A DNA stretch of 63,057 bases, counting the filler, from Aduncisulcus paluster (Eukaryota), in NCBI GenBank assembly GCA_024181965.1. It is 6 parts of 6 records of this genome, joined end to end, with 100 filler letters (N's around TTAATTAATTAA, not from the genome) between each part and the next. Parts side by side here need not be neighbours in the genome. Positions count along the whole stretch, not along the records: positions 16,816 to 23,338 come from BQXS01010043.1; 5 more parts are not named here. One strand, 5' to 3'. The notes under the pieces were generated by a model. That model was given only the letters and a program-made list of their open reading frames with translations, did not search any database and was not told where the DNA came from. This document shows positions 1-57,817 of this stretch, piece after piece. The position numbers and the translations under genes are program-made. Numbering within the stretch: the stretch's first letter is position 1; each line of letters begins with the position of its first letter.

Positions 1-573
1 TTTGGTGGAATATTTTTGACTGATAATGCCGTGACTTTCGCTGATCATATAATAAACTCATGACAGTCATAAAACAACCAAAATTTATTGAACAACCATA
101 ACAAACAAAAAATAGACAACAAAAAGATTAACATGTTGCCGAAACACAGACAAGAAGTTGAAAAGTTAGATTCAAAATAGAGATAGAAGAGTTCAAATTT
201 TCGAGAGCAAAGAAATATAGCAAGACAAAATTATAACGGAATATATTGGCAATATCCGGATGAAATACCTCAACTAAGGAAAGTTGGGTGGTCAATATCT
301 TGTAAAATACTGACTCAAAATTCATAAAAATCATAAAAAAGGAAAAGAAAGAATAACACAATATTAACGAAGTAAACAAGATGCTATGAAAAGCATATCA
401 AAACAAAATACACCTGGAAACAACGATTGATGCTTAACAACAGCAAAAGATTCCACGTTAAATAAACAAACAAAAACTTCTTAAAAAGCAATAGATAAAG
501 AAGAAAAAAGGAAGAAATGATCTAATATGCAAGAGAACAAACAAAGATACAGTCAAAAACACCAGGAAGACAA

Positions 574-1057: not shown

Positions 1058-4000
1058 TTATTCCGGCTTTGGTGGTTTTGCAGAAACAATGGATGATCCG
1101 AAATCTTTGTGAACTACCAGTAAACTGAACTCACTGACACTTTCAAGAGGAATTGCACTAACTGTGGCATAATCAAACACACCACGTCTATCGGTATAAC
1201 CGTCTTTGTAGAATTTGACTTGGCCATCGATCATTTTGGAGAAGCATTTCACATAACAACACTCCACACACTTCCCATTCATCTGATGGACACTCACCTG
1301 CCCATACCGTTCCTTTGTTGTGCAAATAAGGCCAGACGAGGAAACAATCTTCACCTGAGGGGATGAATTGGGAGAAGAAACCTCAACAATTACACTTTGG
1401 TACCTCATAGATTCTGGAAGATAAACTTCCCTTTCAAAGTAAGCCTCATCTTCTTCAATAAATGGAACTTCGCTGTTTTGTTCCTCTGAAATATCGGAGA
1501 ACACAAACCCGTCGACATGACGAGAATCATGGACTTGCTTCCGACGAATATTCAGATAAGGATACGGGGAGGACAAGAACTGGACAGGGAGGGAAGAAAC
1601 ACTGGAAACACATTCAAATGGTTTGAGAGAGAAAAGGGTTTCAATACTGACAGGGAATACACGAAGTTTCACGACTTCAACGTTGTTTGCAGCAATACAA
1701 ACCATATTCCCGAGAGGGGTCTTTTTGACGCTAAATGTGACACGTTCTTCCTTTTCGGCTGCCATTCGCATCGCTTTGTTCCTTTGCACATCTCTTGCGG
1801 CATCTCCATCCACAATGGCATCATCTCCATTATCTTCCATTTCGTCAAGATCTTCCTTGTCAAGTGAATGAGAATACATTTCAGAGAAGAAAGAGAACCA
1901 AGAATCCTCAACCAAGACACCAGTTCTATCCTTCTCAGTCATCATGGTTCTATAACAAGAGGCGACACACTGGGATATTTTAGGAACATTTTCACTCGTA
2001 CATAAATCTAGGAATCCAACCATGGCATCAAACTGGACATTGAACACAGAGGCGTTTGAAGCTGGTAAACTCAAGTCACCAAGAGAGATTTCCGAAAGAT
2101 CATCATACTTGGAGGACATTTCCTTCCACTCTTCGAAACGGTCATGAGCCCAGCCAAGTGTCTGAAGATAAGCATACGCTTCTTTGTATCTTTCGTAGGC
2201 TATCATACAATAAGTTCGGCTCAATTGCAGGGCTTGAGGTAGGTTGTCAGAGTTCAGATGCAAGACATTAACAAGAATTGACTTGTAAAACTCAGCAAGA
2301 CGGGGAATATTAATCCTGTTGAAACCTTTTCTGAGGATATGAGCACGTGAGCCAACAATTGGCTTGAAATCACTGTGATGAAGTGAAGTCTGGGTTGAAT
2401 TTGGCTCAAGAATGACTCCATGTTCCTCGCATACAAATGCGCACCCGAATAAGTTGAGGGCAGTCTGAGGATCAAGTAATACCGGAATTAGAGTATATTT
2501 AGCTTCATTATTCAGGGCAAATGTCAGTGTCTTGGGACAGAAGTGCCCACATGAGTGAAGGAAGGCTAGGATCACATCAACATTTGAGGGGGAAGGATTT
2601 CTACCCAAATGATGAATAAACAGATCATCAAGAGACATAGAAGATTCTTTTTCCATCTTCTTAATGTTCCTTCCCTTGAGAAGCTTCAAGGCTGTTTTCA
2701 AGGGAGTTTTAAGGAGATCTTGGAGGAGTAATACGCCTGAATCTTTGACACGATCTGTGATACTGCGCTCTTTCTTAACCTTAAGGATTGTAGCTCCACT
2801 AGCCTTGCCCACGAACACTCCATTAGATGAGATCTGAGCAGGAACATGAGTGTATCGGCCAACCTTAGGGAAAAAGAAACGATAAGTTCGTGTCAATACG
2901 CTATATGGTCCAGAAACAATGGTCACAAATTCACATTTGGTAGGAAGGTCGGCAGCAACAGTCACTGCTCGATGAGGAATCTGATACAATATATCAACGT
3001 CCATCTCAGAGGTCGAGGGATTAACAATATTCAATTCGCATTGATATATTTGCCCTGGACGGAGCTTATTAGAATTAACAGAGACACATCTGCCATCAAC
3101 TTTCCTCAAAGGATCGACAATACGCTGTTGGATGATCAAATCATTGTCCAAATCTTTCGGTTTCTCTTCNNNNNNNNNNNNNNNNNNNNAATGGTCACAA
3201 ATTCACATTTGGTAGGAAGGTCGGCAGCAACAGTCACTGCTCGATGAGGAATCTGATACAATATATCAACGTCCATCTCAGAGGTCGAGGGATTAACAAT
3301 ATTCAATTCGCATTGATATATTTGCCCTGGACGGAGCTTATTAGAATTAACAGAGACACATCTGCCATCAACTTTCCTCAAAGGATCGACAATACGCTGT
3401 TGGATGATCAAATCATTGTCCAAATCTTTCGGTTTCTCTTCACTTTCCTCTTCTCTCTCTTCGGTTCCCTTTGAATTCATGATCTCTTCCTTGACAAGGA
3501 GTCCTGAATGTCTTCCACTGTGGAACCGCACACCTCTTTCCAGTCTTTCCTGGATGATATCACCTGAACCACAATGGAACCCACAGAAAGCAAGGCCAAG
3601 CATGTGGACATACCATCTGCTATCGATGAAAAGGCTCAGAATATCTTCAGACGGGTGTTGATAATAGATCCAAGTTCCCTTGGAAGTGAACGAACGATTA
3701 ATGAGATCAAACCAGAAAGGAGTACATTCAAACGGTCTCTTCTGGAAAGAAGCGGCCATGGAACCTGACTCGAACCAACGAACCTCACTGTACATTTTTG
3801 TGACACCAAGGCTCTTGTAGTGTTTCTCTGGGACTGCTCTTGAGGAAGAACGTGAAGAACTTGGGGAGAAGTCAACTCCAATGGTTGAAATCGACTTCAT
3901 ACTCATTGGCTTAGCTCTCATCGCTCTTTTTCTTGACATCAGTGAAGCTTTCTTCTTCGGTCTCTCGACACACATTTCCATTTCCATCATACATTCCTCT

Positions 4001-7000
4001 TCATCTTCAACAGAAACTATTGAACGCTGACATTCTTTTTCACTGATTGGCATACCCCTCATTGCCCCAACATTGCCCGGCAATCCTCCAAATCCAGATT
4101 CGTCATCAGAACTATCACTGCTGCTATAGTCACTGCACTCGTCAGAACTATGGTAACGTCCAGATTCCTCTGCAGGGGGCGGAGAAGGAGGATGCAACTC
4201 AAATTCTGCACCCTTAAGAACAGTATCATAGAGATCAGCAACACGTCTGGCGATTTCCTCACGCTTCAGGAACATTTTGTGCTTCTGATTAATGACAAGA
4301 TTGGGCATCAGAGTGGCCATGGTCTGAGTAGCATATCCGGCACAGATTCGATAACGAGAACCAAGCTCTTTGGCAGCCATTGCAGGGCCGAGATGGGACA
4401 AGAAAGCATGTGACCAGTCGGCAATCAAGAATCTCTCAAAGAATGGGAGTCTATTGAAGACAAGAGGAGACAAATATGGAGCAAACCAGGCCGCAGAACC
4501 CTGAAGAGAAGACTTCATTGCATTCTGGACCTTACTTTCCAATTCTTCCCTTTCATCATCGCTAGTACCCTCTCCACAAGGAATCAAGAAAAGAGGTGCA
4601 CGAGAACATAACCACATATCAACAATATCCTTGTCTAATTTGGTTCGTAGAATAGGAATGATGTATTTCTGGGCAAATTCAGGGCAGTGCATTGAAATGA
4701 ATAAATTAACCTCATGGCAAGGGTAACGACGGTATAATTTCAACTGTTGAGTTTCATCCATATCACAAAATCCTGCAAACTCAGCGAATTTCAACAGTTT
4801 ATGATCTTGGTCAGAACATGTTCGAGTTGCCAAATCCCACATATCTTTCACAGATTGTGCGCAGAATATCCTTGCTGACAAGATGTCTGTCAGCTCACAC
4901 GAGTTATCCTTATCAAGAAGAGCGATACTCCGATGTTGAACAAGCTCTGAATCTGGGGGGTATGCATATTTAAGAGATACGTCCCTCAATACCTTTGGTT
5001 CACTTTTAAGAGACAAGGGAACTACTCTCCGGATTGTTTTGTTCCCGGCAAAGCAGACAATGGAACAGAATCCGCATGCATCATGAGCAAGAACATGGGC
5101 TGGGATCGTGATTGTAGATGTCACAGAGCCATTCCTACACGATTCTGGGTCAAATGTGACGACACAACAGTGAGTTTTGGGCTCGATATATCTGAAAGAC
5201 ATGACAGAATCAATAGATCCTGATCCACATGGTGCGGGTTCATCTGCATCTGCAAAATAATATTCTTCTTCTTCACATTCATACTCATCAGCCATTTCAA
5301 ACATGATGTCTTGTTTTGCACACATAATATCCTTGGTCTTGAAAGATCTTTTACCTCTCAACCTTGCTCCCGAAGTTGGCATGGCAGATGATGAGAACGA
5401 ATCGAAAGCCTGACCCTCCTTGGCACCAATATAGGTAGCCTTTGCCTCTCCCTCATTGAAAGGACGCATAACAAGTCCAGGCTTTGACATGGACACTGTC
5501 ATTTGCTTATCCTTGGATTCAATCAAGGCACGTTTATGCACATAAGCAACTTCCTCTGGAATATCAAGGATATCCTGCTCTAAAGGTAGTTTAATTGGGA
5601 GATTGATTATAGCACAATCATGAATAGGATTGACTTGAATGATCTCTCTCGAACGATCATAGAAGGGGGCAAATGAGGAGAACGCGCAAAGACACTTCAC
5701 ATTGCCGGAAGAGAGGATAAATGGTGAGAGATATTCACTCTCAAGTGTAACATCAACAAGCAAATCACCATTCTCCTTCTTATCGGTGATCTCAGCCATG
5801 ATATGAGGAGCAATAGGAGGTTGATAAGTGAGTTCAGTGAGTTGACGGCCCATAGAAGCCAAGTATCTCTTCTCTATCTCACCTTCCTCACACGAACGTT
5901 CAGTGGCGATCATGAGCCGTCCAAGATCAATCTCACCTGCTCTGATAGTGACAGATCCTTCGTGCAAAGCCTCAAAGATCGCATGGGGTACTCCACCAAT
6001 GATTTCAACTGGAACATCCTGGACTTGGAAAGGAAGAGGACTGTCCCCATGTCGGTAAAAGGCAGTCACTCGGGGGTGAGGAAGTGCTGGAGTCTCTTCC
6101 TTCAAAGGAATACTTGCACAAGAAGGGGGCATAGGAATAGAGGTGATACTGCCAATGGAAACAATGTCACGATTAGTGGGCGAAGAAGAGTGGAATTGAC
6201 CATCCATATGCAGATCAGCAACGTCGACAGAGAAACGATACTTTGTACCTGGCACCAACTCAAGTTCAAACGAAAGTTGGTTTGTCACTCCAATACTCTG
6301 AGAGATGTCAATCCTGCCAGAATCATCCGTTTCAAGAATTGAGGTGAGATCATGATGGGAAAAGTGGGAGGAACTACATGAAACAATAACAGGAAGCTCT
6401 GGACATGGCTCACCAGATACATCAACAACTCGCAGATACAACTCCTTGCCTTCAGGGCCACGTTCAAACCGGACAGTCCTGTTGGCACCAGAACGAAGAA
6501 CATCATTCATACAAAAACAGTCGGTCCATGAAAGATGCTGTCTCTTGCCTTGGTTGGATGAGAATGATGAGTAAGATACTTCTCCAGTGACTGCAAAGGA
6601 TATCTTGGAGATGGTTGTTGGAAGCTTAAGGTTAAGGGTCTGTTGACCATCAAGAACCTTTCTTGCCTCGTCGTTCTTGATTGAACAGGCAGTGGATTCA
6701 TCTCCCTGGAAATCTGTGATCGTACAACGAATCGACAAGTCAGCCACATCAGCTAGAGGAATAGCATCTCCTCCATTCAAAACGACATGACCCAAGAGGA
6801 CAATGGGGACCTTCTCTCCACTTCCTCCAATACTCTCTCGGGGCACTGTAGCATGGCACCAGAGGCTGTATGTCTCCTTTGGGACATCAAGGGTTACGAA
6901 CTCTCCAAACTCAGAGGAGACACTATCCTTGATGACAGCTGATAACATGCTGGATTCAGTTACAAAGGGTATGAAACGAGGGAGGGAAGGCTCAACGCAT

Positions 7001-9015: not shown

Positions 9016-9306
9016 GTAATTTAAACAAGAGATTCTTATTTATAGATATAAATAAACAAAAATAAAACACTCCGTTGTTTTTAAATGTTGTCAAATCAAC
9101 TGCTGTTCAAAGTTCTTGCTTGTGTCTATTTTTCAAAGGACAAATCGCCATCAAGGAAATCAAAATATTCGAAATACAACTATTTTATTTTTGCTGGATA
9201 AATATAACGATATTAGCGCATGGAATAAGATCAGAAAACAAAAATATTATTCATCCATGATTATCGGGAGAAACTGAAAAATAATTAAAGGAAAATATAT
9301 ACAAAC

Positions 9307-13745: not shown

Positions 13746-15485
13746 ATGCCGGAACCTAAGGTTTCTACTTCAACAAAATCCAAAAAGGTGAAATTGTCGG
13801 TATTACAACCGGAAACCCTCATCTCAAATCCCCCGCCTCGTTTTTCATCCTTCGACCCTACTAAAAACATTCATCTTGTAGAAAGAAAGCGTGCTCAAGC
13901 TAAATGTGATACAATTACACAATCTTTGTGGAGAGCTAGTGAAAAACATCCTGAATCTCGTGAAGCCGTGTCAGAACATGAGCCATCAACTGAACGCGAA
14001 GTTTCCACAGGTCATGAAGCTTCATTTGAACGGGAAGGAGTGGAAGAACATGAAAGTTTACCTAAGCCTGAAGAAATTGATGATTCAATTCCCCCAGAAG
14101 TTCCTTCTGAATTAGCCCCTGTAAGAAAGCCTCAAACACAAAAAAATCGTACAATTCAATCAAAGAAAACTCGTAAAATTGGTGTTTATAACCCTTCACA
14201 AGCAGCCTTACACTCTCCCCTTGCTGCATCATCTATCGTTGATTCTGCCCATCTCGCTGCCAGTGATGAGGAAATAGAACGTGCCAGACAACAATATTCA
14301 CGTATTAAAAGTCTGATTCATGAGGCCAAGAAGGAGCATAAGGCTAAGAGGGATGCTGTTGAGCGAATGGATCGTCAGATGGCTGAGGAGCTGGAGAAAG
14401 AGAGAGAAAATGCTCGTATGGAGGCTCTCAAGAGACAGAAAAAGCTCAAACAACAACGGAGAGCGAAGGCATCTGAAGGACTTGCTGCTCTTGAACAGCA
14501 GACATCTAATCGGCAAACTCAAATGAAGAAGCTTCGTCGAGAGAGCAAACAACTTAAGGAGAAGTTTGGAAAAGTTCCTCGTTTCTTAAAGATGGAACAA
14601 GATTTTGACCGTCGTGAACAGAACCATGTTACAAATAAGCATAAGGAATTCCTCGGACGTTTCAAGATGGCAGAAGGTGAGGAAGAATTTGGTCGTCCTT
14701 CAAGATCCAGCAGCACGCAAGCTAGATACAGTAAGATTGGAAAGAACGTGTGGCAATCTGAACAACAGATTATTTATGGAATGACAAAGAAAGGCCATCT
14801 CGAGGCAAAGAAGAAAGAAAAGGAAAGGCTTAAGAAATACGCTGAATTGGTGCATAAAAGAAACCAAAGGAAATATTCTTCGCCCATCCGTCAAGTCCTC
14901 GGGAAAGCTGGTCTCATTGACTCAAAAGGTCCTGATGCTCATTGGGAGAGGAGTCACATTTTCGAAGAGGAGCTCCATCTCCGTGAACTTGAGCTTGAGC
15001 GTCAGTTAAAACAGGGCAAAAGAAGTGCTTCCTATTCCTCTGGCACCACTCAGAAGTCCCCGTACACAAGTTCCTCCCCGAGTCTCATCGGAAAGGGAGT
15101 CTCAGCGGCTGGAAGTGCTGCTCCTACTACAACCATCAGTCGTCTCTCCGGAGCGTCGAGAAAGACCCCTACCGGGATTCCCGGGGTGTCATCCATGTAT
15201 CGCAGTGCCTCCAGTGCACCCGCAGACATTGATACTCTCGCTGGAGAAGCATCTGTCCTTGCCATCGAGAGCAGTAAGGCTAAATTGGCTGCGTTGAAGG
15301 ATCTTGGACTGTTTGGGGCTTCTAGTGAGCCAAAAATAGATGAGACTGAGAAGGAAGAAGAAGTTGTGGTTAAGCCTGAAGAGAAGAAAACCGAGATTAA
15401 GAAACCATCTGAGGAAAAGAAGCCTGTTGATGAGAAAGAGGAGGAGGATTTCGATGAGGATTTTGACGATGATTTTGATGAATAA
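13746..15485 (+). CDS. 579-aa coiled-coil hypothetical protein with acidic C-terminus
   Basis: Long intact ORF with E/K/R-rich helical centre; no family recognised. Confidence 0.75.
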   Translation: MPEPKVSTSTKSKKVKLSVLQPETLISNPPPRFSSFDPTKNIHLVERKRAQAKCDTITQSLWRASEKHPESREAVSEHEPSTEREVSTGHEASFEREGVEEHESLPKPEEIDDSIPPEVPSELAPVRKPQTQKNRTIQSKKTRKIGVYNPSQAALHSPLAASSIVDSAHLAASDEEIERARQQYSRIKSLIHEAKKEHKAKRDAVERMDRQMAEELEKERENARMEALKRQKKLKQQRRAKASEGLAALEQQTSNRQTQMKKLRRESKQLKEKFGKVPRFLKMEQDFDRREQNHVTNKHKEFLGRFKMAEGEEEFGRPSRSSSTQARYSKIGKNVWQSEQQIIYGMTKKGHLEAKKKEKERLKKYAELVHKRNQRKYSSPIRQVLGKAGLIDSKGPDAHWERSHIFEEELHLRELELERQLKQGKRSASYSSGTTQKSPYTSSSPSLIGKGVSAAGSAAPTTTISRLSGASRKTPTGIPGVSSMYRSASSAPADIDTLAGEASVLAIESSKAKLAALKDLGLFGASSEPKIDETEKEEEVVVKPEEKKTEIKKPSEEKKPVDEKEEEDFDEDFDDDFDE

Positions 15486-16081: not shown

Positions 16082-16102
16082 GGTGGTTTGTACAGCAAAT
16101 CG

Positions 16103-16715
16103 ATGTCATTTAGAGCATCATTGGATTTAGAAAGGGCTTCTCAAGCGATACAAGATGCTGAGATTGTTGATCATATGGATCATTTGATGACACATCCCTT
16201 AGAACCCCAAAGCCGACGCAGCCAACATGGATGTAAGTGTATATACATTCGAGAAGCTTATATGGAAGCAAATGATGAAGATTTTAAGTTCTTTTTTGGC
16301 GTTAACCGTGCAGAATACGGGTACATTGAAGGTAACTGTTCCGATTGCTTTATGCCTTCAAGACGAGGCAGAAGAGCCAAATTGACACCACGAGATTCTC
16401 TGTTATGGTCATTAAGGTGGCTGAGAAGCGGAATTAATATGAAAGAGCTTGCTAAACTAAGCTATGTAAGCTATGTAACGTTTCATCGGGCTATCTGGCA
16501 GGCCTTAGTAATTATGGAGGAACAAATTGTTCCAAAATTATTATTTAAGCCACCAATCGACGAATTACCAGTTGCCTTACATTTTCCAGACGCCAAACTC
16601 GTAGTAGATGGCACCATCCAGCAATTTACCTGTGGAGCAACTTTACAATTCAAGGATAGACAGACATTCTTCTCTCACAAGCATAAGGCATATGGGATCA
16701 AGAGTGAGGTTATTG
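16103..16715 (+). CDS. Harbinger/IS5-like DDE transposase, N-terminal part (HTH plus first catalytic Asp), 3' truncated
   Basis: RGRRAKLTPRDSLLWSLRWLR HTH region; FPDAKLVVDGT (first D); FFSHKHKAYGIK motif typical of DDE_Tnp_4 transposases. Confidence 0.8.
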
Positions 16716-16815
16716 NNNNNNNNNNNNNNNNNNNNNNNNNNNNNNNNNNNNNNNNNNNNTTAATTAATTAANNNNNNNNNNNNNNNNNNNNNNNNNNNNN
16801 NNNNNNNNNNNNNNN
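16716..16815. other. Artificial contig-join spacer
   Basis: N44-TTAATTAATTAA-N44, stops in all six frames; identical spacers elsewhere in the window. Confidence 0.97.
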
Positions 16816-16905
16816 CAGGTCAAGGACTTGGAAGCAATGGACAAATTTCTAGAAGCGAATATTAGGTTAAAAAACAAAATAGAAGATGGAACCATGAATC
16901 TATAG
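16816..16905 (+). mobile_element. 3' end of the polyprotein (chromodomain C-terminal helix) of a second, related chromovirus
   Basis: Translates QVKDLEAMDKFLEANIRLKNKI...*, aligning with TVKDLEALDEYFAKHPNLKKKF at the end of the 17547-21599 polyprotein. Confidence 0.7.
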
Positions 16906-17453
16906 CATTGAAAAATGATTATTACTATATTCATTACGACTGATTCAGTTCACTTAAAGTTTTAACGGTATCCAACATTTTTTGTCGACAATATTCATTT
17001 CATATCCATTTAATTTCCAATGAATCTATCATGGAAAACTCGTTTTATGAAACGAGTAAACATGCATATTGCCATTATTCTACTGTTTGAGCCGTTTTCG
17101 AAATTTGTTGTAAAGAACGAGTCAACAGACTAAAATTGGAAAAAATAAGATTTTAGTATGTAAACACTATATATTATTTTATTATATTGATTAATTGTGC
17201 TAGATTATCCGTCGTTGACGATTTTTAAAAATTTTTCATTTCTGATGATTTCAACTTTTCATAAAAGGAAAAGTGCAGAAATTTTTATTTTAGTACATAT
17301 TATATTCGAATTCAACGTTTTTATTACGCTAAATGAGGGTTTTCTGCGGAAAACAAGAAAGGAGGACATCCTCCAGAACAATGAAAAATTTCAGTATGTT
17401 ATGTTAATTATAAACATTTTATATATTTTTATAATCAATTTCGATGAGTTATG

Positions 17454-17531
17454 TGTTGGGGTTTCTCACCACTCTATTTATAGATCCCGGTTAGCCGGTT
17501 GTTTATTCAATAAATTTGCTAAGCCATAACA
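17454..17531 (+). repeat. 5' LTR (78 bp)
   Basis: TGTT...AACA ends; TATTTATA at 17475; AATAAA at 17509; identical to 22702-22779. Confidence 0.97.
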
Positions 17532-17546
17532 GTATTAATACTGAAT

Positions 17547-20500
17547 ATGACAAAGACCCCGAATAACAAGACCATTATTACCACGGAAAAAGGTCCAGAC
17601 CCTCCATTTCTAAAGGGATTGTCCACTGAGAATTGGTCCCATTTTGTTCGCGAGTACAAACATTATCAGAGCCTTGGAGGTGTTAAACCTTGGCCAGAAT
17701 TGGTAGACTCCGTAATCTTAACGGTCATTTCCGACTTGAGTAAGATAAAGGACTTCAAAAACAAGCAAGCTCGCAAAGAGGCCTTCGAAAAGGTAGATGC
17801 TGTGTTCGCATCCACAAGCGTGATCAATCTGTACGATCGCCTTCGTAAGGTCGCTATGGACAAGAAGTTGAATATCGATTCACTTCTGGCGTACACTGAG
17901 AAGTTTCGGGCCATCCGAGACAGATCTCCCAGCTTAGGTTCTGTAGAAGATGTCACGGACATATTTATTGATGGTCTGCATAAGAAGAGATTAAGAGACT
18001 GTGTTAGAGCCAAGTGTGATGAAAAGACTACCCTTTCCGAAGTCATATCTATTGCAACGAGTGAAACTACTCGCTTGCACGCACTGAAGCTCGAGAATGC
18101 TGCTTTAGATGAAGATGAGTCATCTTCTGGGGAAAAGACAGCTTCGTCCGAAACCCATTGTCAATATTGTGGAAAAAAAGGACACACGGCGAAGGAATGT
18201 CGGTTTATTGGAGGAAAACGACGTTATTCCTCTTCGTCTGCTCATACTCCACAGAAGCTCTTTAAGAAGAAACAAAGATGGATAAAGAGTAGAGACCCCA
18301 AGTACTCCCGCTTTTATCCAGACGTAATCTGCCGAAAGTGCGATAAAAAGGGACATTATGCGAAATTCTGTAAAGAACCTATCTCCAGTAAAGGTTCAGG
18401 TAAGTATTTTATAAAAGTTTTTTCGACATCAGGATTTTCTCCTTTTCGTAGGTCGATAGAAGTAATGAACACATTATCTGGGAAGGTTGTCCCTACCACT
18501 TGCCTTTTAGACTCGGGAACGTCGTCCTCGACTATCTCCAGACGTTTGTCAACCGAATTGGGATTGGTCATCAACTCGGAAGACATCCATTCGTTTGAAA
18601 TGGCAGATGGATCAGTTGGAACAACATTAGGTTCGACAAGTGCGACTATTATCGTGCAGGGTCCTGAAAAAAAGAAATTGGAGGTAGAAGAGAACTTTAT
18701 TGTCATTGAGATGAGAGAAAACTGCTCTCATGAAGTTCTTTTGTCTGGGAATTGTATTCGAAAACATGAGTTAATATCGTGGGACCAGATCAGCCAAGGT
18801 GAAGATGAGTCATCAACACTTGATGCAGATTTGGAAGATAACGTTATGGGATTTCCTCAGATGCGTTACCAACCCATCGAAATACATTGTGATATTGACG
18901 AACTAAAAGCCCCAATTGAAAAAATATTGGAAGATTATGAAAAGGAAATTGACAGGAATATGCCTGCCAATGTTCCTGATTACTCAATCAAACTAAAAGA
19001 AAACACACCGGTAAGAAGAAAATTAAGACCGCCACCTTTTGGCCTTGAAGAAGAACTGGGTGAAAAGATTGAGGACTTATTGAAAGATGGGTTTATCGTG
19101 GAGTCAAAAAGTTCGTATGCTGCCCCAATTGTCGTGGTGGAAAAGCCAGACAAATCAATCCGGATGTGCATAGATTATACGGGATTGAATTCTAAGATTG
19201 TTGATGATGTATATCCCATTCCCCTCCGTAGTGTTCTTTTCAGATCGCTACAAGGGATGAAATTGTTCGCCACGCTCGACTTAAAGAATGGATATTACCA
19301 TGTTCGCGTTGATAAAGACTCCAGACATCTCACTGCTTTTATCTCTCACAAAGGTTTATTTGAGTGGGTAAGAATGCCCTTTGGGCTGAAAACGGCCCCG
19401 AGCCACTTCCAAAGATGTGTAAATAGTCTGTTTCACGATATCATAGGTTCAAAAATTCTGATTTATTTAGATGACATTTTGGTGTTCGGAAAATCGGAAG
19501 AGGAATTCATTTCGAACCTATCAGAAGTGTTACGACGATTAGCAGAGTCCAACCTGTGTTTAAATTACGACAAGTGTAAATTTTGCTTAAAAGAAGTCAA
19601 ATACCTAGGGTTTACCATAAACGGGGAGGGCCGAAGGGTTACCGAGAAAAGGATTGAAGACATGAGGGAAATTCCCCCTCCGAAGAATAAGAAAGGCGTC
19701 CAGAAGTTATTAGGAGCCATAAATTTTGTCAGCGAGTTTATTGTCGATTATTCAAGAATTACAGAGCCTATTTCCCGATTACTACGACAAAAAACTGCAA
19801 AAATCGAATGGGGAATTGAACAACAGGAGGCTTGGGAGAAGATAGTATTAAGCCTCGAAAGTAGAATAACACTGGAACATCCAGTCAAAGATAAACAATT
19901 CATCCTCAGGACTGACGCTTCTACTACGGGAATTGGCGGAATTTTATTACAAAACATAGATGGTAAAGAAAAAGTAATCTCTCTGTTTTCCAAAAAATTC
20001 ACTCCGGCTGAGTCCGCATGGAGCACAATTGAACAGGAGGGATTTGGTGTCGTCTATGGAATCCTAAAAAACAAAGAATTCCTATTGGGCTCAGAATTTG
20101 TTGTAGAAACCGATCACAAGAATTTACTATATATATTTAAATCAGAAGTTCCCAAGCTTGTGAGGTGGAGACTTATCCTCGCCCCTTTCTCATTTTCAAT
20201 ACGCCACATAAAAGGAGTTGATAATGCGACAGCGGACTTCCTAAGTCGTATTCCTTCAGGGAATTTACAGCTTAAAGCTCTGCAAGTATCAGAAACGGAA
20301 CCACAAACTCAAGATTCAGAGCACCCAGAAGTACCTGTTAAAAGGATTTTAGAAGTTCATGAGAGACTGGGACATGCCTCTGCAAGAGCCACAACAAAGG
20401 AATTAAAAAGAATTGGATTTACAGAAAAGAATTTATTTAAACGTGTGAACAAAGAAATCATGGCCTGCATATCCTGTCAAAAGAACAGGGTAAGTAAGAA

Positions 20501-21599
20501 GAAAAAATTTTTTGGACGATTAAAATCATCCCAGGCTTGGTCGACGCTGTCAATAGATACAGTAGGACCTGTTGAGACCGATGAGGATGGATTCAAGTAT
20601 TTCATTGTGATTATCGACGATTTTACTCGTTTTGCGATAATCTCTCCAACAAAAACTGCATCAAAAGAAGAGTCAGTAAGGGAAATAAGGAGGTTAGTAA
20701 GCCTCTTCGGTTGTCCCAAAAGTATAAGGACCGACGGAGGAGGTCAGTTTATAGCTTCAGAGTTTGAGGATTTATTAAAGTCTTTTGGTATCTCACACAT
20801 AAAAACAATACCTGGAGACCACGAAGCTAATGGAAAAGTGGAGCGATTAAATCGCGAGGTCAGGAGATTGCTCAGAATTTATTCGTTAGAAAACGATTTT
20901 TTGAATTATCATGAATTCTGCGATTGGTGTTGCCTTGCTATAAATAGCAGAGAACATTCTGTGACAAAACAAAGTCCATTTGCTGCTTTGTTCGCAAGAG
21001 AATCATTTTTTACTTCATCAGATAAAGAAATAGATGGAGAGTCAGAGGTAGTAGAAGTATCGACATATGTAAAAGATCTAAAAGAACGAATGCATGGGTT
21101 ACATAAAGAAATTACTGACATTGATGCTCCCCAAACAGAGGAAGCACTTGCTGTTGATGAATTTAAAATAGGAGATTTAGTCTTATGGAAAAAAGAAACC
21201 ATAAAGTCAAAACAGAAATCTTTATTAGCCGGCCCATTTGTTGTGAAAGAAAAACAATCTGATTTTCGGTACGTTCTGAAAAAACTTGATGGAGATGAGA
21301 CCTTTTTGGTCCCTTTAAAAAGAATTATTCCTTTTATACCGGGAAATCACGACCATGACAGTCTTATTAAGGCTGCGGCTAAAGACGATGAAGAATTCCA
21401 AGTAGAATGCATTCTCAGACACAAGTTTGGCACAAAAAAGCCAATTAAATTTAAGATAAGGTGGAAACATTATGGCGAAGAAGAAGATTCCTGGGAAGAC
21501 TATACTACTGTAAAAGATTTAGAGGCTCTGGATGAATATTTCGCCAAACACCCAAATCTCAAGAAAAAGTTTATTAGAAAAGAGGTAAACGCTATTTAA
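17547..21599 (+). CDS. Gag-Pol polyprotein: two CCHC knuckles, aspartic protease, reverse transcriptase, RNase H, integrase, chromodomain
   Basis: CQYCGKKGHTAKEC and CRKCDKKGHYAKFC; LLDSGT; MPFGL...YLDD; TDAS; HERLGH..CISC; D-D-E (IDTVGP, RTDGG, VERLNR); GPF; EEFQVECILRHK...IRWKHYGEEEDSWE. Confidence 0.97.
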   Translation: MTKTPNNKTIITTEKGPDPPFLKGLSTENWSHFVREYKHYQSLGGVKPWPELVDSVILTVISDLSKIKDFKNKQARKEAFEKVDAVFASTSVINLYDRLRKVAMDKKLNIDSLLAYTEKFRAIRDRSPSLGSVEDVTDIFIDGLHKKRLRDCVRAKCDEKTTLSEVISIATSETTRLHALKLENAALDEDESSSGEKTASSETHCQYCGKKGHTAKECRFIGGKRRYSSSSAHTPQKLFKKKQRWIKSRDPKYSRFYPDVICRKCDKKGHYAKFCKEPISSKGSGKYFIKVFSTSGFSPFRRSIEVMNTLSGKVVPTTCLLDSGTSSSTISRRLSTELGLVINSEDIHSFEMADGSVGTTLGSTSATIIVQGPEKKKLEVEENFIVIEMRENCSHEVLLSGNCIRKHELISWDQISQGEDESSTLDADLEDNVMGFPQMRYQPIEIHCDIDELKAPIEKILEDYEKEIDRNMPANVPDYSIKLKENTPVRRKLRPPPFGLEEELGEKIEDLLKDGFIVESKSSYAAPIVVVEKPDKSIRMCIDYTGLNSKIVDDVYPIPLRSVLFRSLQGMKLFATLDLKNGYYHVRVDKDSRHLTAFISHKGLFEWVRMPFGLKTAPSHFQRCVNSLFHDIIGSKILIYLDDILVFGKSEEEFISNLSEVLRRLAESNLCLNYDKCKFCLKEVKYLGFTINGEGRRVTEKRIEDMREIPPPKNKKGVQKLLGAINFVSEFIVDYSRITEPISRLLRQKTAKIEWGIEQQEAWEKIVLSLESRITLEHPVKDKQFILRTDASTTGIGGILLQNIDGKEKVISLFSKKFTPAESAWSTIEQEGFGVVYGILKNKEFLLGSEFVVETDHKNLLYIFKSEVPKLVRWRLILAPFSFSIRHIKGVDNATADFLSRIPSGNLQLKALQVSETEPQTQDSEHPEVPVKRILEVHERLGHASARATTKELKRIGFTEKNLFKRVNKEIMACISCQKNRVSKKKKFFGRLKSSQAWSTLSIDTVGPVETDEDGFKYFIVIIDDFTRFAIISPTKTASKEESVREIRRLVSLFGCPKSIRTDGGGQFIASEFEDLLKSFGISHIKTIPGDHEANGKVERLNREVRRLLRIYSLENDFLNYHEFCDWCCLAINSREHSVTKQSPFAALFARESFFTSSDKEIDGESEVVEVSTYVKDLKERMHGLHKEITDIDAPQTEEALAVDEFKIGDLVLWKKETIKSKQKSLLAGPFVVKEKQSDFRYVLKKLDGDETFLVPLKRIIPFIPGNHDHDSLIKAAAKDDEEFQVECILRHKFGTKKPIKFKIRWKHYGEEEDSWEDYTTVKDLEALDEYFAKHPNLKKKFIRKEVNAI

Positions 21600-22493
21600 A
21601 TTCAGTTGAGGAAAATAAACTGAATAAAATGTCATAAAACAACTTTAGTCAAAGAGATTTGAGAATTTTTGAAAACTTGTTTTTGTGAACTTCACATACC
21701 CTTGAAGAATACAATATAATATAATTTAATTTAAAAAGGCATTAAAATGATATATATAAACGATATTTTATTATTATATCGTGAATTAAAAGGGTTTCAA
21801 GGACATTTTCGATTGTATTTACAAATTAGTGAATGAACCACATGGGCAAATTAATTTGCAAATTAATCTGTTGTGAATCATAAATTAATACGGGTTTCAC
21901 GTATACGCAATTCACAAGGGCTTGGACCCCACAAGAGTTACAAATGTTGTCTTTCGGCGATATCTTAAATTATTTCGCGTTATTATGAACAAAAAAGTTG
22001 ATTCAGTTATTATAAGAAATCTTTTACGCCATTTTATAGTTAATGCTAATAGTAATGAATATTTTTGGGAAAAATGTTCGGAACCGTTGTGTTTGTTAAA
22101 TAATTCAAAAAGAAAACACCCAAAAAACAGATTTTATTGGTAAACGATCATAACATAAGTCGAAACTTGATCAGAAATTGGTTGAAAAAAAGTTTAAGGG
22201 AAATCACCAAAAAACTTCATCCTATCTTAAAAATAAGAGGGGGAAGAGAGGAATTACAATTATTTTAAAGATAATATTCAGGTTAAAAACAAGATATATT
22301 GGAAAGAATGATTAGAAATTAAAAGTTTGATCGTTGTTAATTCAGACAGGTTTCAAACAAGTTTTAAAAGTATGATACCTGATGATTGGCTGCATTCATT
22401 AAGGTTTTGTTTGTCATAGGAGTTAAAGAAGGTATTTTGAACATTTTCATAAAATTAGATTCCACTGAGAAGCAAGGGTGCCTCAGGGTAAAA

Positions 22494-22567
22494 TAGTGAT
22501 GACGGGAATCGAACCCGCGACTTGAAGGTTCTTAACGAAGAGGCCTTACCAACTGAACTAGATTATG
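22494..22567 (-). ncRNA. tRNA-like Pol III cassette (degenerate cloverleaf) inside the retrotransposon 3' non-coding region
   Basis: Minus strand: A box TAGTTCAGTTGG, B box GGTTCGATTCC in an intact T-arm (GCGGG-TTCGATT-CCCGT), tRNA-like spacing (~74 nt), then TTTT. Acceptor and anticodon stems do not pair. Confidence 0.65.
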
Positions 22568-22685
22568 AATTTAAAAGAAAATAATAATTTATATTAATAA
22601 GAGAAAAACTGTATAAAGATCAACCACGATAGAGAGTGTTCCTTTATCATGGTATCGAGAAAGATTAAGCGCTTAACCGGTTCCT

Positions 22686-22701
22686 AGAAATAGGGGGGAA
22701 G
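22686..22701 (+). other. Polypurine tract (plus-strand primer)
   Basis: AGAAATAGGGGGGAAG immediately upstream of the 3' LTR. Confidence 0.9.
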
Positions 22702-22779
22702 TGTTGGGGTTTCTCACCACTCTATTTATAGATCCCGGTTAGCCGGTTGTTTATTCAATAAATTTGCTAAGCCATAACA
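22702..22779 (+). repeat. 3' LTR (78 bp)
   Basis: Identical to the 5' LTR; followed by TTATG. Confidence 0.97.
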
Positions 22780-23338
22780 TTATGATACTTTTTTAAAGTA
22801 GTTTATTGTCTTGATCTTTTTCTTGACGATTATAAAGAATTTTATAAAATCGAAGGACGGAAAATTAACTTATAGGTTAATTCTAAGTCACTGATAACCG
22901 GTAAAATACCGATTCACTCCTTCAAAAGGTTTTTTCGAAAAATCTTGTTTTTCGTTCGGTTTTGTAATTATTTTAGACAAAAGCAAAGAAATTTATGATT
23001 TTAGAGATTAAGAAGAAAGATTTATTTATTAAATCCTTTTTAATTTTGCTAATTCAAATTTTTCGACTTTTTGCTTTTTTCACACACGAACCGAGTCGCG
23101 ATTCGGTTAACAATTATCAATTACACTAGTGATAAGCGTTATACTTTAAAGATATTACATCTTTTTCATTGAAATATCTTTCTATTTCAGATCGTATTTT
23201 TCCCTTTCCTTCCATCGAGCCTTCGCTCTGAGAGGGGTAGAAGTGGGGAAAATACACTCTATCTATGTTAATTATATGTTGTTCTTTTATTTCACTTCTT
23301 AATTTTAAATAAGAAGAAGGAACAAGAAGTATTTTTCA

Positions 23339-23438
23339 NNNNNNNNNNNNNNNNNNNNNNNNNNNNNNNNNNNNNNNNNNNNTTAATTAATTAANNNNNN
23401 NNNNNNNNNNNNNNNNNNNNNNNNNNNNNNNNNNNNNN
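23339..23438. other. Artificial contig-join spacer
   Basis: N44-TTAATTAATTAA-N44. Confidence 0.97.
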
Positions 23439-26400
23439 AAGAAAAGAGGAAGAAAGAAAACTATTTTTGCTTGAAAAATCCAAATTCCAAGATGAAAGAT
23501 CTAAATTATTAGAATTGCAGGCCAAATTGGAAGAGAAAGAGCAGTTATTGATCAAAATGCAAGAAGAGGAAAAATTAAAATTAGAACAATTAAAAATTGA
23601 AGAAATTGAAAGAGAAGAGAGAAGGAAACAAGAGGAAGATGAAAGGAAAAGAAGAGAAGAAGAAGAGGAGGAAGAAAGGAGAAAAGAAATAGAGAAAAGA
23701 AAGAAAGAGGAAGAGGAAGAAGAGAAGTGGAGAAAAGAAGAGGAAGAAAAAAGGCAAAGAAAGGAAGAAGAAGAGCGAAGAAAGCGTGAAGAAGAGGAGA
23801 AGAAAAGAATAGAAATTGAAGAAAAAAGGAGAGAAGAAGAGCGACTTTTGCTTGAGAAAGAACGTGATAGTTTACAAAAACAGAAAGAGTTGTTAGAATT
23901 GGAATGGGAAAAGAAACAAGAATGGTTGAAAAACGAACAGATTAAGTTTGAACAAGAAAGAAGAAGAAGAGAAGAGAAGGAAAGAAGAGGAAGAGGAATT
24001 GAAAAGAAAGAAGGAAGAAGAAGAAAAACTACGAGAAGAAGAAGAAGAGAGGAGAAAAGCGGAAGAAGAGAAAAGAATTACACTTCGTTTGCAGAAAGAA
24101 GAGGAAGAAGAGAAAGAAAGGGAAACACAAAAGGAAATCCAAAGAAAAGCATGGGAAAAGGAGGAACAGGAATGGCTTGAAAAACTTGAGAAACTTCGTA
24201 TTCGACGTGAAAAGGAGGAAAAGGAGCTTCAAAAATGGGCAGAGATGAGGAAAGCTTGGAAGATTGAAGAAGAGGAATATACAAAGCGTAAGGTGAGTTC
24301 AGAGGCTCAAAAAGAAGCAGGAGAGGCTCAAAAAGAAGCAGGAACAGACAATGTTGAGACCGATCTATTTTTAGGAGCAACATTTGCAGAAGAGGATATT
24401 GTTGAGGAATTGGTGGGGAAAACTGAAGAAGAGGAAGAGGAGGAAGAAGAGGAAGTGGGAGGAAAAGAAGATGCAAAAGAAGATATAGAAATTGAAGAGG
24501 AAGATTCTGAGGAAGAACAAGATCTCTCCCCAGCTCAAAAGAAGCTTCGAGCAGCTGAGGATGAACTGTTACATACAGAGACTGGATATTTATCTTCCCT
24601 CTCCTCTCTCTGTGATATAGTCGAACGGCTTGAGTCCAAACATGGTTTCACTGAATTATCAGAGATTGGTGCCATTGCAAAGATGATGAAGGCCAATTCA
24701 CAGCATTTGGTCGATGATCTGACATGTATTCTGCCGCCATTCAAATCGTTATATCTGACCCTTGCGAGAGATGGTGAGGAATCGTTATCAATAGAGGAGA
24801 GAGAAAAGAAGAGAAGGGAAGAACGGAGAGCAAAAAAGAAGGATGCTAATCAGCGTCGATTGAATAGAATTCAGAAAGCTGGACCATCACATTCAATATC
24901 TATAATACATGGTTTACCACTCGCAGAACGTGCTAGTGAGGCCCTTGTGATGGCTGTGCGGTCGTTCACTCTCTCTTATCTCTATTTATGTAGATATGAT
25001 CAAGTTGCTGCCTCTCTTAAGCTTGCTCCGAAACATATTAAAGATGAGATCATGAATTTTGAGATGAAAATGCAGTCCCCGATGGAAGTTTTCCTTATTC
25101 GACCAGTGAGAAGGTACCCTGAGTATGAGTTAATCATGAAGGAGCTTGTCAAACAATCTGGACGTGTGTATGGTGTTGATCATCCCATCCATAAGGAATA
25201 TATTTGTGCCCAACAAAGTATAGTCGCAGTTAATGAATTTGCCAATGATTGCAAAAGTAAGGTCGATTTCTGTCGAGCTAGTATGCTGATTCCACACATC
25301 ACGACCCATGTTCCTGTGTCCGTTCGAGCTATTCTTGGGAGTGGCAGGAATGGTGTGTTTCCGACAGATATGATGCTCCCTCAGAGACCCAAGAGTAAGA
25401 AAGGAGACAAAAGGAGCAGAGTTGATACGCCCCTATGTTCAGACATGTGGGATAGATGCACATCCATGTATGAGAAATATGTGAATAATGAGCAACATTC
25501 TCACGTGGCCTTAAAATATATATTAAATAATTCTACCGTGGATATTCCTCCTCTCCTCTCTTCTCTCGAAGTTTCTAATGATCAAAATGATACATCGGGT
25601 GTTCCAAATTCTGCAATGATTCCACAATATGTAGTGGACTCGACCCCTGAATATAGTCATCATACAACTCCACTTGCTAGAACTTTGCTCTGGGAAGGAA
25701 TAATGAAGGTTCTCGTGCAGAATTATGGCGATTTCACTGATCCTCCGAGCTCTCCATTTGAGTTTCCAAAGAGAAACCCACACGATGATACAATGACCCT
25801 TGGAGATCCTCGCTTGGGCCTACGATTCTCCAAAGGTGGAAGGAAAGGTGCTCTCGAATATAAAGAGCGGCTTGTATTATTGTTCACTGATTGTGTTGTC
25901 ATTCTTAAACAACGTGATCGCCGTGAATTTGTCCAATGTCTCGCTCATGCTGATAAACTTGAGGAAAATGATACATCGGGTGTTCCAAATTCTGCAATGA
26001 TTCCACAATATGTAGTGGACTCGACCCCTGAATATAGTCATCATACAACTCCACTTGCTAGAACTTTGCTCTGGGAAGGAATAATGAAGGTTCTCGTGCA
26101 GAATTATGGCGATTTCACTGATCCTCCGAGCTCTCCATTTGAGTTTCCAAAGAGAAACCCACACGATGATACAATGACCCTTGGAGATCCTCGCTTGGGC
26201 CTACGATTCTCCAAAGGTGGAAGGAAAGGTGCTCTCGAATATAAAGAGCGGCTTGTATTATTGTTCACTGATTGTGTTGTCATTCTTAAACAACGTGATC
26301 GCCGTGAATTTGTCCAATGTCTCGCTCATGCTGATAAACTTGAGGAAAAGGATACAATCGGGCACTTTGTTGGATCTCCAAGTGAAGTGGCTGGTGGTCT

Positions 26401-27745
26401 GAGACGCATTTGGGATGAACAAGAGAAATCATACCCCATGGATCCCCTTCCTGCATTTGTTTTGGCTGGAGTAGAAGAAAAGGATCGGCGAGAAGCGTCT
26501 CGAGGAACTCTTTCCCCTTCAAAAGAAACTACCACCGACTCTGGTGAACTTTCAAGAAATCCAATTTCTGTGAATATAAATAATCTCTCTACTGATGATG
26601 GTGCGAGTATCACTGATAGCATTGGTTCAACAGATACATTTTCTACTGCTGCCTCTGTAACAACCAGACAATTGCCTGATTATGATGAATTGGAGAGGAA
26701 AGACATTACTCTATTCTCAACAGATTTTCATGAAAAGAATCATTCTGCTATTTGTAAAGATCGTAAACAAATTTTGTCTGAAAATAGTGTATTACAGAGC
26801 CAATCAGTGTGGAATAATGTTGCTCCTAAAAATAGATCCAGTGCTGTTTATTCTTTGAAACATTTTTCTCCCACTGGTGGATTGTTCCTCTGTGTGTCAG
26901 AATCTCTCCTTCAATGGTGGAGTATCGGGGGTTCTGAGGAGAAGGAAGACAAAGAACTTGTCAATATTAAAGGGAACAATTTTGAAACACTTGCGACTGC
27001 CATGCTCGAGTGTGGTTGTGTGAAGTATGATGCCAAGGAGAGCGAGCCATTGGTATCTGAGAGTGTTACCACTGCTTCCAATGAGTCTCTCTCAAGTGCC
27101 ATGAGTCCATCTCTCTCAACCTCAACAACTTCTTCCACTCCTGTTGGGAAAAACAATAACAAATTCAATGCATTCGATGATTATTATGATGAATCTCCAT
27201 CTATTTCAACCCCTATTCGGGATGTGACATCATCTATTGACTCATTGGTCCCAACTCCCTCGGATTGGCTTGATAAATTGACTGATGCACTCAGTGTTGC
27301 AAAGGAATCAGATGCTTCACATTCAAGACTTCAATCCGAAATGAACGATGGACAAAAACAAGGAGAAGAAGAAAAAGAAGAGAGAGAAGAAGAGTGCGAT
27401 GACGTTTTTGAAACTCCTCAAGTTGAAAGGGAGAAAATTCACGAACAAACGGAAGTACCATCGAATGAGCCGTTAAGACCACGCAATATGCTCTCTTTTG
27501 ATGAGAATATTGAAGGAGAGGAGGACAGAGAAGAAGAGGAAGAAGAAGAGGAAGAAGAGGAAGAAGAGGATGCTGAATCTGGAATGGAGGCTGTTATTCT
27601 TGGAAACGTTCCATCCTTTACTCTTGATTCTGTTTCCCATTTTGACATTCAAAAAGAACCAACGATAACCCCAATTGTTAAAGAAGAGCCTGAAGTGAAG
27701 AAATTGAAAAAATTCGTTCCTCCTCCTCCTCCTCCAAAGAAATAA
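23439..27745 (+). CDS. Dbl-homology (DH-PH) Rho GEF with long E/K/R charged helix and C-terminal polyproline; 5' partial, apparent frameshift near 23950-24000
   Basis: ELLHTETGYLSSL and FLIRPVRRYPEYELIMKELVK are DH signatures; LLWEG...ERLVLLFTDCVVI is PH-like; the charged helix moves from ORF 23467 into ORF 23948 by a frame change in a GAA-rich tract. Confidence 0.8.
25584..26349 (+). repeat. In-frame 381-bp tandem duplication inside the RhoGEF
   Basis: 25584-25964 repeated from 25965; 127-aa block NDTSGVPNS...HADKLEE appears twice. Confidence 0.9.
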
Positions 27746-30268: not shown

Positions 30269-30368
30269 NNNNNNNNNNNNNNNNNNNNNNNNNNNNNNNN
30301 NNNNNNNNNNNNTTAATTAATTAANNNNNNNNNNNNNNNNNNNNNNNNNNNNNNNNNNNNNNNNNNNN
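30269..30368. other. Artificial contig-join spacer
   Basis: N44-TTAATTAATTAA-N44. Confidence 0.97.
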
Positions 30369-35943: not shown

Positions 35944-36043
35944 NNNNNNNNNNNNNNNNNNNNNNNNNNNNNNNNNNNNNNNNNNNNTTAATTAATTAAN
36001 NNNNNNNNNNNNNNNNNNNNNNNNNNNNNNNNNNNNNNNNNNN
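35944..36043. other. Artificial contig-join spacer
   Basis: N44-TTAATTAATTAA-N44. Confidence 0.97.
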
Positions 36044-57717: not shown

Positions 57718-57817
57718 NNNNNNNNNNNNNNNNNNNNNNNNNNNNNNNNNNNNNNNNNNNNTTAATTAATTAANNNNNNNNNNNNNNNNNNNNNNNNNNN
57801 NNNNNNNNNNNNNNNNN
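57718..57817. other. Artificial contig-join spacer
   Basis: N44-TTAATTAATTAA-N44. Confidence 0.97.

Follow-up and report, generated by a model that had tools for sequence, protein, structure and literature searches.

LTR retrotransposons and retroviruses capture host sequence by read-through or template switching, and the tRNA-derived SINEs typically start with a tRNA-like head in which only the promoter boxes are kept. TFIIIC sites are known to act as chromatin barriers. Cassandra TRIMs are LTR retrotransposons of plants whose LTRs contain a Pol III promoter that derives from 5S rRNA; they are non-autonomous, carry this module in sense orientation within both LTRs, and have a tRNA-Met PBS (bioRxiv 10.1101/2023.07.14.548913, a preprint that cites Kalendar 2008).

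Other described elements differ in how reverse transcription is primed. The fungal GalEa elements, which are Ty1/copia retrotransposons of Pezizomycotina, have a Conserved Hairpin Site of unexplained role instead of a PBS; this short site directly behind the 5' LTR becomes a palindrome when read together with the last A of the LTR, a second complementary box follows 12-41 bp downstream, and the authors reported finding no complementary segment in the LTR and no described priming model that fits (PMC5445492). A TGG PBS is also missing from the self-priming chromoviruses Tf1, Tj1 and sushi, as well as from Dictyostelium Skipper, which has a polypyrimidine stretch (PPy) in its place (PMC4600332, PMC5006619, PMC6317226). 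Two of these articles state that Tf1-type priming depends on complementarity between the PBS and part of the 5' LTR (PMC4600332, PMC5006619).

Here we analyze an element from Aduncisulcus paluster (assembly GCA_024181965.1) that touches on both of these themes. The window, that is, the whole stretch of 63,057 nt that was analyzed, consists of contigs joined by 100-nt linkers of the form N-TTAATTAATTAA-N (16716-16815, 23339-23438, 30269-30368, 35944-36043, and 57718-57817), in addition to seven 20-N gaps, and the element resides on the part at 16816-23338 (6523 nt, BQXS01010043.1). Because the contigs are joined only by linkers, the RhoGEF-domain ORF at 23948-27745 has no physical link to the element. 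The preceding contig contains two ORFs on the plus strand, at 13746-15485 (579 aa) and 16088-16715 (227 aa), the latter running into the linker; neither has a Pfam match.

The element extends from LTR to LTR over positions 17454-22779 on the plus strand and is flanked by the target site duplication (TSD) TTATG, which can be read directly at 17449-17453 and 22780-22784. The 5' LTR (17454-17531) is only 78 nt long, has TG...CA ends, a TATA-like motif and AATAAA, and is identical in all 78 of 78 positions to the 3' LTR (22702-22779); the element inserted recently. A single ORF of 1350 aa (17547-21599) encodes gag-pol with zinc knuckles, RT, RNase H, integrase, and chromodomain. It is followed by a 3' UTR of 1102 nt (21600-22701), at the end of which the polypurine tract AGAAATAGGGGGGAAG (22686-22701, read directly) adjoins the 3' LTR. 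The traits of a Ty3/gypsy chromovirus that were examined are all present, namely the RT-RNase H-integrase order, the C-terminal chromodomain, the TG..CA LTRs, the polypurine tract, and the short TSD. The nearest named relatives of the polyprotein, with 41-44% identity, are from the metamonad Aduncisulcus paluster as well.

An empty site was found in run X1, which may be the assembly's own source: its contigs join position 17448 to position 22780 with five ambiguous bases, and this joint confirms the boundaries of the element. The summed depth of the two empty-site contigs is 7221, compared to 1208 for the interior of the element, which could reflect either a polymorphic insertion or a flanking repeat of about five copies with one copy occupied; several unrelated contigs with a depth of about 1200 favor the repeat. 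A 4753-nt contig of X1 leads from 22700 to 17453, that is, from the 3' UTR through one LTR directly into the 5' end of the ORF; a circle with a single LTR, a tandem arrangement, or just an assembler crossing the repeat could each account for it. In addition, short X1 contigs at 18101-18224, 19320-19414, and 19689-19724, which overlap conserved parts of gag-pol, show several mismatches and one to two times the unit depth, which suggests that this genome contains one or two families of related chromoviruses.

The cassette at issue lies at 22490-22567 on the minus strand, and the sequence quoted for it in an earlier, sequence-only reading of this DNA agrees exactly with the window. It comprises positions 8-73 of the class-I tRNA frame followed by TTTT, with the 5' acceptor strand replaced. 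The A box TAGTTCAGTTGG (22549-22560) and the B box GGTTCGATTCC (22505-22515) both fit the consensus patterns that we used, and their start-to-start distance of 45 nt fits the 30-60 nt of type-2 Pol III units. The B box is part of the T-arm GCGGGTTCGATTCCCGT (22502-22518), the stem of which has five of five pairs; the 3' acceptor strand (22501-22495) and tRNA position 73 (22494) follow, and directly adjoining is a T4 run (22493-22490) that resembles a Pol III terminator. The whole cassette, on the minus strand, is antisense to the element, and on the element strand the 3' LTR begins 134 nt downstream.

The B box by itself is not significant, with one match compared to 0.28 expected and at least one match in 23 of 100 shuffles. 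The window contains a single instance of the composite signal, defined as an A box, a spacing of 40-62 nt, a fully paired T-arm, and T4 within at most 20 nt, and none appeared in 1000 first-order Markov simulations of the window; even the strict pair of A and B boxes alone occurred only once in total over 1000 such simulations. As the composite is absent from the simulations, the sequence of the cassette derives from a tRNA-type gene. Hence, what the sequence-only reading had reported about the anatomy, namely A and B boxes at tRNA spacing on the minus strand, an intact T-arm with an immediate T4, and a location inside the TSD-bounded element about 135 bp before the 3' LTR, was confirmed by these measurements.

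Laid on the class-I tRNA frame, the cassette fits exactly in length, with a 5-nt variable loop and one extra base in the D-loop, and it has kept 16 of the 16 universally conserved positions. The stems have fared very differently: the T stem is paired at 5/5 and the D stem at 3/4 positions, the anticodon stem at only 1/5, and the acceptor stem at 3/7, a value at chance level that bears out the previously noted loss of the acceptor stem. ARAGORN detected no tRNA in the window, neither with default nor with seven relaxed settings, and Rfam gave no gathering-level match, so that the expected failure of tRNA finders indeed occurred; at E<=10 the T-arm alone matched, to the tmRNA model with 13.9 bits. 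Together with the two broken stems, these results rule out a functional tRNA gene. The 3' half of the cassette may resemble a eukaryotic isoleucine-type tRNA, and the 26-nt string of T-arm and acceptor strand had no exact match among prokaryotic genome contigs.

The damage is not evenly distributed. The four broken anticodon pairs all fall within one contiguous block of 4 nt (positions 40-43), and the 5' acceptor strand is replaced precisely ahead of position 8, a pattern suggestive of one truncation and one change of a block and not of prolonged neutral decay. A central hairpin, which had been proposed as an alternative fold, is indeed present in the minimum free energy structure of the 85-nt cassette RNA; the stability of this RNA, in contrast, equals that of shuffled sequences (-10.9 compared to a mean of -10.95 kcal/mol, z = 0.02, 100 of 200 shuffles at least as stable). 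Contigs of run X2, which is presumed to be RNA, were found near the cassette at 22573-22608; they are 46-49 nt long, A-rich (36 nt aligned) and carry five to six mismatches, and we regard them as low-complexity noise.

The reading that we favor, and that we hold to be moderately probable, sees in the cassette a piece of a class-I tRNA gene that is truncated at its 5' end, was acquired together with about 0.6-1 kb of host-like DNA, and has been carried passively since then. A chromovirus lineage would have taken up a mutated tRNA-gene fragment (positions 8-73 plus the T-run) together with AT-rich non-coding DNA, and this DNA would have been placed between pol and the polypurine tract, by read-through transduction or template switching. 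In sense orientation, a copy in the genomic RNA would be prone to cuts by tRNA-processing enzymes, which may be why the antisense orientation was tolerated. Since its capture, the cassette would have been copied passively along with the element. Its A and B boxes, being intact, would recruit TFIIIC and perhaps Pol III, and the product would be a short, unstable minus-strand RNA of about 80 nt without a required role in replication. Judged by its boxes, the cassette has probably retained the ability to bind TFIIIC or Pol III.

Several features of the 3' UTR bear on such an acquisition. In the window, the distance from the pol stop codon to the end of the LTR is 1180 nt. For relatives (described below), we used a palindrome starting at CA as a marker of the LTR end; in 29 relatives, the contig that carries the pol stop also has this palindrome further on, 80-567 nt beyond the stop in 26 of the 29 and at 1056, 2117, and 3074 nt in the remaining three. 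The GC content of the 3' UTR (0.298) is close to that of the flanks (0.276 and 0.281), compared to 0.396 for the ORF and 0.385 for the LTR, and no ORF in the 3' UTR is longer than 52 aa. A further X1 contig, with a depth of about 1193, matches from 22682 at the polypurine tract through the LTR to 22779 with 1-nt deletions at 22746 and 22749, and carries 164 nt of unlike sequence upstream; thus, a sister 3' end exists that does not have the 3' UTR of the window. Neither the 3' UTR nor the cassette has a similar sequence elsewhere in the window or in 93 related loci, and no remnant of an older LTR or polypurine tract was found within the 3' UTR. A donor tRNA gene or donor locus was not found in the window or in the 93 related loci, and prokaryotic contigs contained no exact match. 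From these features of the sequence, about 0.6-1 kb of the 3' UTR is probably acquired. The identical LTRs, the TSD, and the empty-site contigs imply that the cassette moved with the element.

The locus therefore resembles host-sequence transduction in having host-like non-coding DNA of flank-like composition between pol and the polypurine tract that was carried through transposition. It differs from it in that neither a donor locus nor an older LTR or polypurine tract remnant in the UTR was found, and both the acquisition and its mechanism are what we infer from the sequence features listed above.

Could a misassembly instead have linked the cassette or the UTR to the element? Short contigs make up the window, and the sequence on either side of the element is fragmented and rich in repeats. 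However, the single 4753-nt contig of X1, a run that may be the assembly's own source, covers 18206-22700 without a mismatch, through the UTR and the cassette into the LTR, and the polypurine tract, LTR, and TSD are all in register, so that we regard a chimera of the cassette or the UTR with the element as exceedingly improbable. The same run, with the same reservation that it may be the source of the assembly, shows a flat depth over this whole interval, with no variant and no second contig of at least 80% likeness.

A nested insertion of a tRNA-derived SINE or of a retroposed tRNA copy in the 3' UTR is very unlikely as well. The cassette does consist of a boxes-only tRNA-like head, as do the heads of SINEs, and like a tRNA pseudogene or SINE head it has kept the A and B boxes and the elbow of D- and T-loop while the acceptor and anticodon stems were lost. 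However, a search of the 3' UTR revealed neither a convincing flanking TSD nor a tail that is A-rich or made up of simple repeats, and the terminator follows directly after position 73, leaving no SINE body. There is no CCA, which excludes a retroposed mature tRNA. Moreover, only a single X1 contig covers 22426-22626 at a likeness of at least 80% and no further copy occurs in the window; thus, the cassette is single-copy in X1 and does not belong to a multi-copy family there. By our own rough estimate, chance alone would yield something like the 10-nt inverted pair at 21595/22566 in AT-rich sequence.

Two stems of the cassette are broken, but its two boxes, with all 23 nucleotides, and its T-arm in full length have stayed intact; this pattern would also fit selection on the boxes. 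The cassette may be a selected Pol III/TFIIIC module, the boxes of which attract TFIIIC, whether or not Pol III transcribes it, to the benefit of the element. Such a module could be a chromatin barrier for a chromodomain element that lands in silent chromatin, it could provide a platform free of nucleosomes next to the tiny LTR, or it could give rise to an antisense small RNA with a regulatory function. We consider this possible but rather doubtful. It is in line with boxes that fit the consensus patterns and with the 16 of 16 conserved positions kept beside two broken stems, as well as with the T4 directly after position 73 and with an integrase that has a chromodomain. However, the RNA of the cassette has no extra fold stability, and the cassette lies outside of the LTR, so that after integration it is present upstream of the 3' LTR only and does not shield the 5' promoter.

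The sequence-only reading had proposed to check whether sister families keep the boxes at the same position. Relatives were analyzed at 93 loci, comprising 80 of 221 confirmed metagenome relatives and 13 contigs from viral collections, with 24-36% identity in the best tblastn segment. The C-terminus of pol is present in 75 of the 93 loci, and at least 200 nt follow the pol stop in 60. Scans for boxes and T-arms revealed an antisense A/B-box or T-arm cassette after pol in none of these 60 relatives, which does not support a design shared by the family. ARAGORN called two tRNAs in the 93 loci, both on the sense strand and one of them within pol; the call in L002 needs a 65-nt intron, begins in pol, and ends in the 3' LTR, where the T-arm lies. 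Rfam gave no match at E<=1 for ten related loci.

Three distant relatives contain box relics at other places, all of them in sense orientation within LTRs. In L020, both the A and the B box as well as T4 (about 349-415, plus strand) are located at the start of the LTR, just past the polypurine tract; Infernal with Rfam models on 320-440 of this locus returned only weak T-loop matches. In L002, a perfect T-arm (5064-5080 and 9198-9214, plus strand) lies 11 nt into each of the 241-nt LTRs, and in L001 a pair of A and B boxes (about 3749-3805, plus strand) ends about 10 nt before the LTR end. Altogether, two strict A+B pairs were found in 507 kb compared to 0.03 expected, and none of 300 simulations reached two. 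When the three relics are aligned with the window cassette, the boxes are all that they have in common, and sharing only the boxes indicates that the four modules are independent captures.

These relics above chance level suggest convergent retention and hint that such modules are kept for a reason, and the idea of a TFIIIC site or insulator gains some weight from them. However, the four cases agree neither in position nor in strand, and no cassette is found at the position of the window cassette in the 60 relatives. In addition, the statement that the boxes were kept in L001, L002, and L020 is in part a matter of ascertainment, because the relics were found by searching for boxes.

The comparison with Cassandra is similarly two-sided. 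In both cases, a fragment of a Pol III gene that includes the promoter has become a sequence module of an LTR retrotransposon. In contrast to Cassandra, the element in the window is autonomous with a full gag-pol, its module is tRNA-derived, antisense, and placed in the 3' UTR 134 nt outside of a 78-nt LTR, and it has no TGG PBS. The relics of L001, L002, and L020, being in sense orientation and inside LTRs, are nearer to that layout than the window cassette. Of the known kinds, the cassette is thus closest to Pol III promoter co-option of the Cassandra type and to host-sequence transduction, although the defining features of Cassandra are lacking.

The second peculiarity of the element concerns its PBS. 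The 5' LTR is followed by GTATTAATACTG, which, together with the LTR-terminal CA, forms the perfect 14-nt palindrome CAGTATTAATACTG (17530-17543, plus strand) at the position of the PBS, and no TGG is present. In relatives with LTRs defined by two copies, the LTRs end with ...ACA, mostly with ...CACA. A perfect palindrome of 10-14 nt that starts from the last A of the LTR is found in L002, L003, L004, L029, L030, L032, L045, L059, and L080, with the ends set by the two LTR copies; in L006, it begins one base before the last A. L020 has the same pattern, at an LTR end that was deduced from the layout pol C-terminus-PPT-LTR-gag with a single LTR copy. The palindromes are located, among others, at position 5275 in L002, 298 in L003, 107 in L004, 54 in L006, 545 in L020, 237 in L029, 60 in L045, 78 in L059, 91 in L080, and 1860 in L077. 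Across the clade they are 10-16 nt long, often of the form A|GT...AC|T, and without TGG, and the AGTATTAATACT of the window itself also occurs in L049, L069, and L077. Of 750 palindromes of at least 10 nt in all 94 sequences, 82 have this ACA junction, distributed over 60 sequences, compared to about 32 expected from a crude trinucleotide estimate, and some of the 82 are surely due to chance.

Many relatives thus have the palindrome without having a cassette, which makes the PBS-less state a trait of the clade that is independent of the cassette. The sequence-only reading had suggested that the cassette and the missing PBS together may define an undescribed retroelement design. This suggestion is not supported: the PBS is absent clade-wide without the cassette, none of the 60 relatives has the cassette, the UTR is unusually long with a flank-like GC content, and the sister 3' end in X1 is devoid of this UTR. 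The more general proposal of a captured and repurposed tRNA gene survives in part: the cassette is tRNA-derived, has retained promoter and T4 without the cloverleaf, is antisense, and moved with the element, but neither a design formed with the missing PBS nor a role as a primer helper is supported.

The latter role deserves a closer look, as the cassette might encode a primer, primer helper, or decoy for reverse transcription that replaces the missing PBS system. The element does lack a TGG-type PBS, and a segment of the D-loop of the cassette RNA can pair weakly with the 16 nt after the LTR (-8.2 kcal/mol). However, this pairing is not significant, as 83 of 1000 shuffles were as good, and the palindromic site after the LTR is found in many relatives without the cassette. 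Furthermore, a transcript that anneals to the locus it was made from would act as a primer 210 nt inward from the 3' end, and the two LTRs seen in the TSD-flanked copy could not be regenerated. We therefore hold this to be highly improbable.

Tf1-type self-priming was also considered and rejected for the window element, since 737 of 1000 LTR shuffles equaled the best duplex between the LTR and the post-LTR site (-4.4 kcal/mol); it was not significant in L002 (98 of 1000 shuffles) or in L045 (789 of 1000) either. Tf1, Tj1, sushi, and Skipper share with the window element the state of a chromovirus without a TGG PBS. In contrast to Tf1, the LTR of the window element has no significant complementary segment, and unlike in Skipper, no polypyrimidine stretch follows the LTR. 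From the sequences compared, the priming of the minus strand appears as a separate, clade-wide peculiarity, with a palindrome replacing the tRNA-type PBS. One might speculate that two packaged RNAs pair via the palindrome and are then cut into a primer.

The nearest description that we found of a palindromic PBS substitute is the Conserved Hairpin Site of GalEa. The window element shares with GalEa the absence of a tRNA-type PBS and a palindrome that includes the last bases of the LTR, but its clade consists of Ty3/gypsy chromoviruses from protist-like and metagenomic sources, with palindromes of 10-16 nt that commonly read A|GT...AC|T. In a literature search that covered few subscription journals, we found neither a publication on a chromovirus that carries an A/B-box module of tRNA origin or a palindrome as a PBS substitute nor one linking Aduncisulcus with a retrotransposon.

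The boldest interpretation would join the box modules with this clade: a PBS-less clade of protist and environmental chromoviruses would repeatedly domesticate promoter fragments of tRNA genes, in the LTRs or beside the polypurine tract, as platforms for TFIIIC or Pol III, and the window cassette would be live, bound, perhaps transcribed, and selected for protecting or regulating a chromodomain-targeted element. We regard this interpretation as unlikely at present and prefer the passively carried tRNA-gene fragment.

If the cassette is indeed such a passenger, it represents a clean and datable case of a retrotransposon picking up a fragment of a Pol III gene, but one that is otherwise ordinary. 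It is of use for genome annotation, where such a cassette might be taken for a SINE or for a tRNA pseudogene. If, instead, selection maintains the box modules, Cassandra would no longer be alone in co-opting pieces of Pol III promoters; autonomous chromoviruses would do so as well, the pieces in this case stemming from tRNA genes and having been taken up at least four times independently. Independently of the cassette, the clade-wide palindrome matters because it points to an unexplained start of reverse transcription, for which the fungal GalEa Copia elements are the one earlier parallel that we found.
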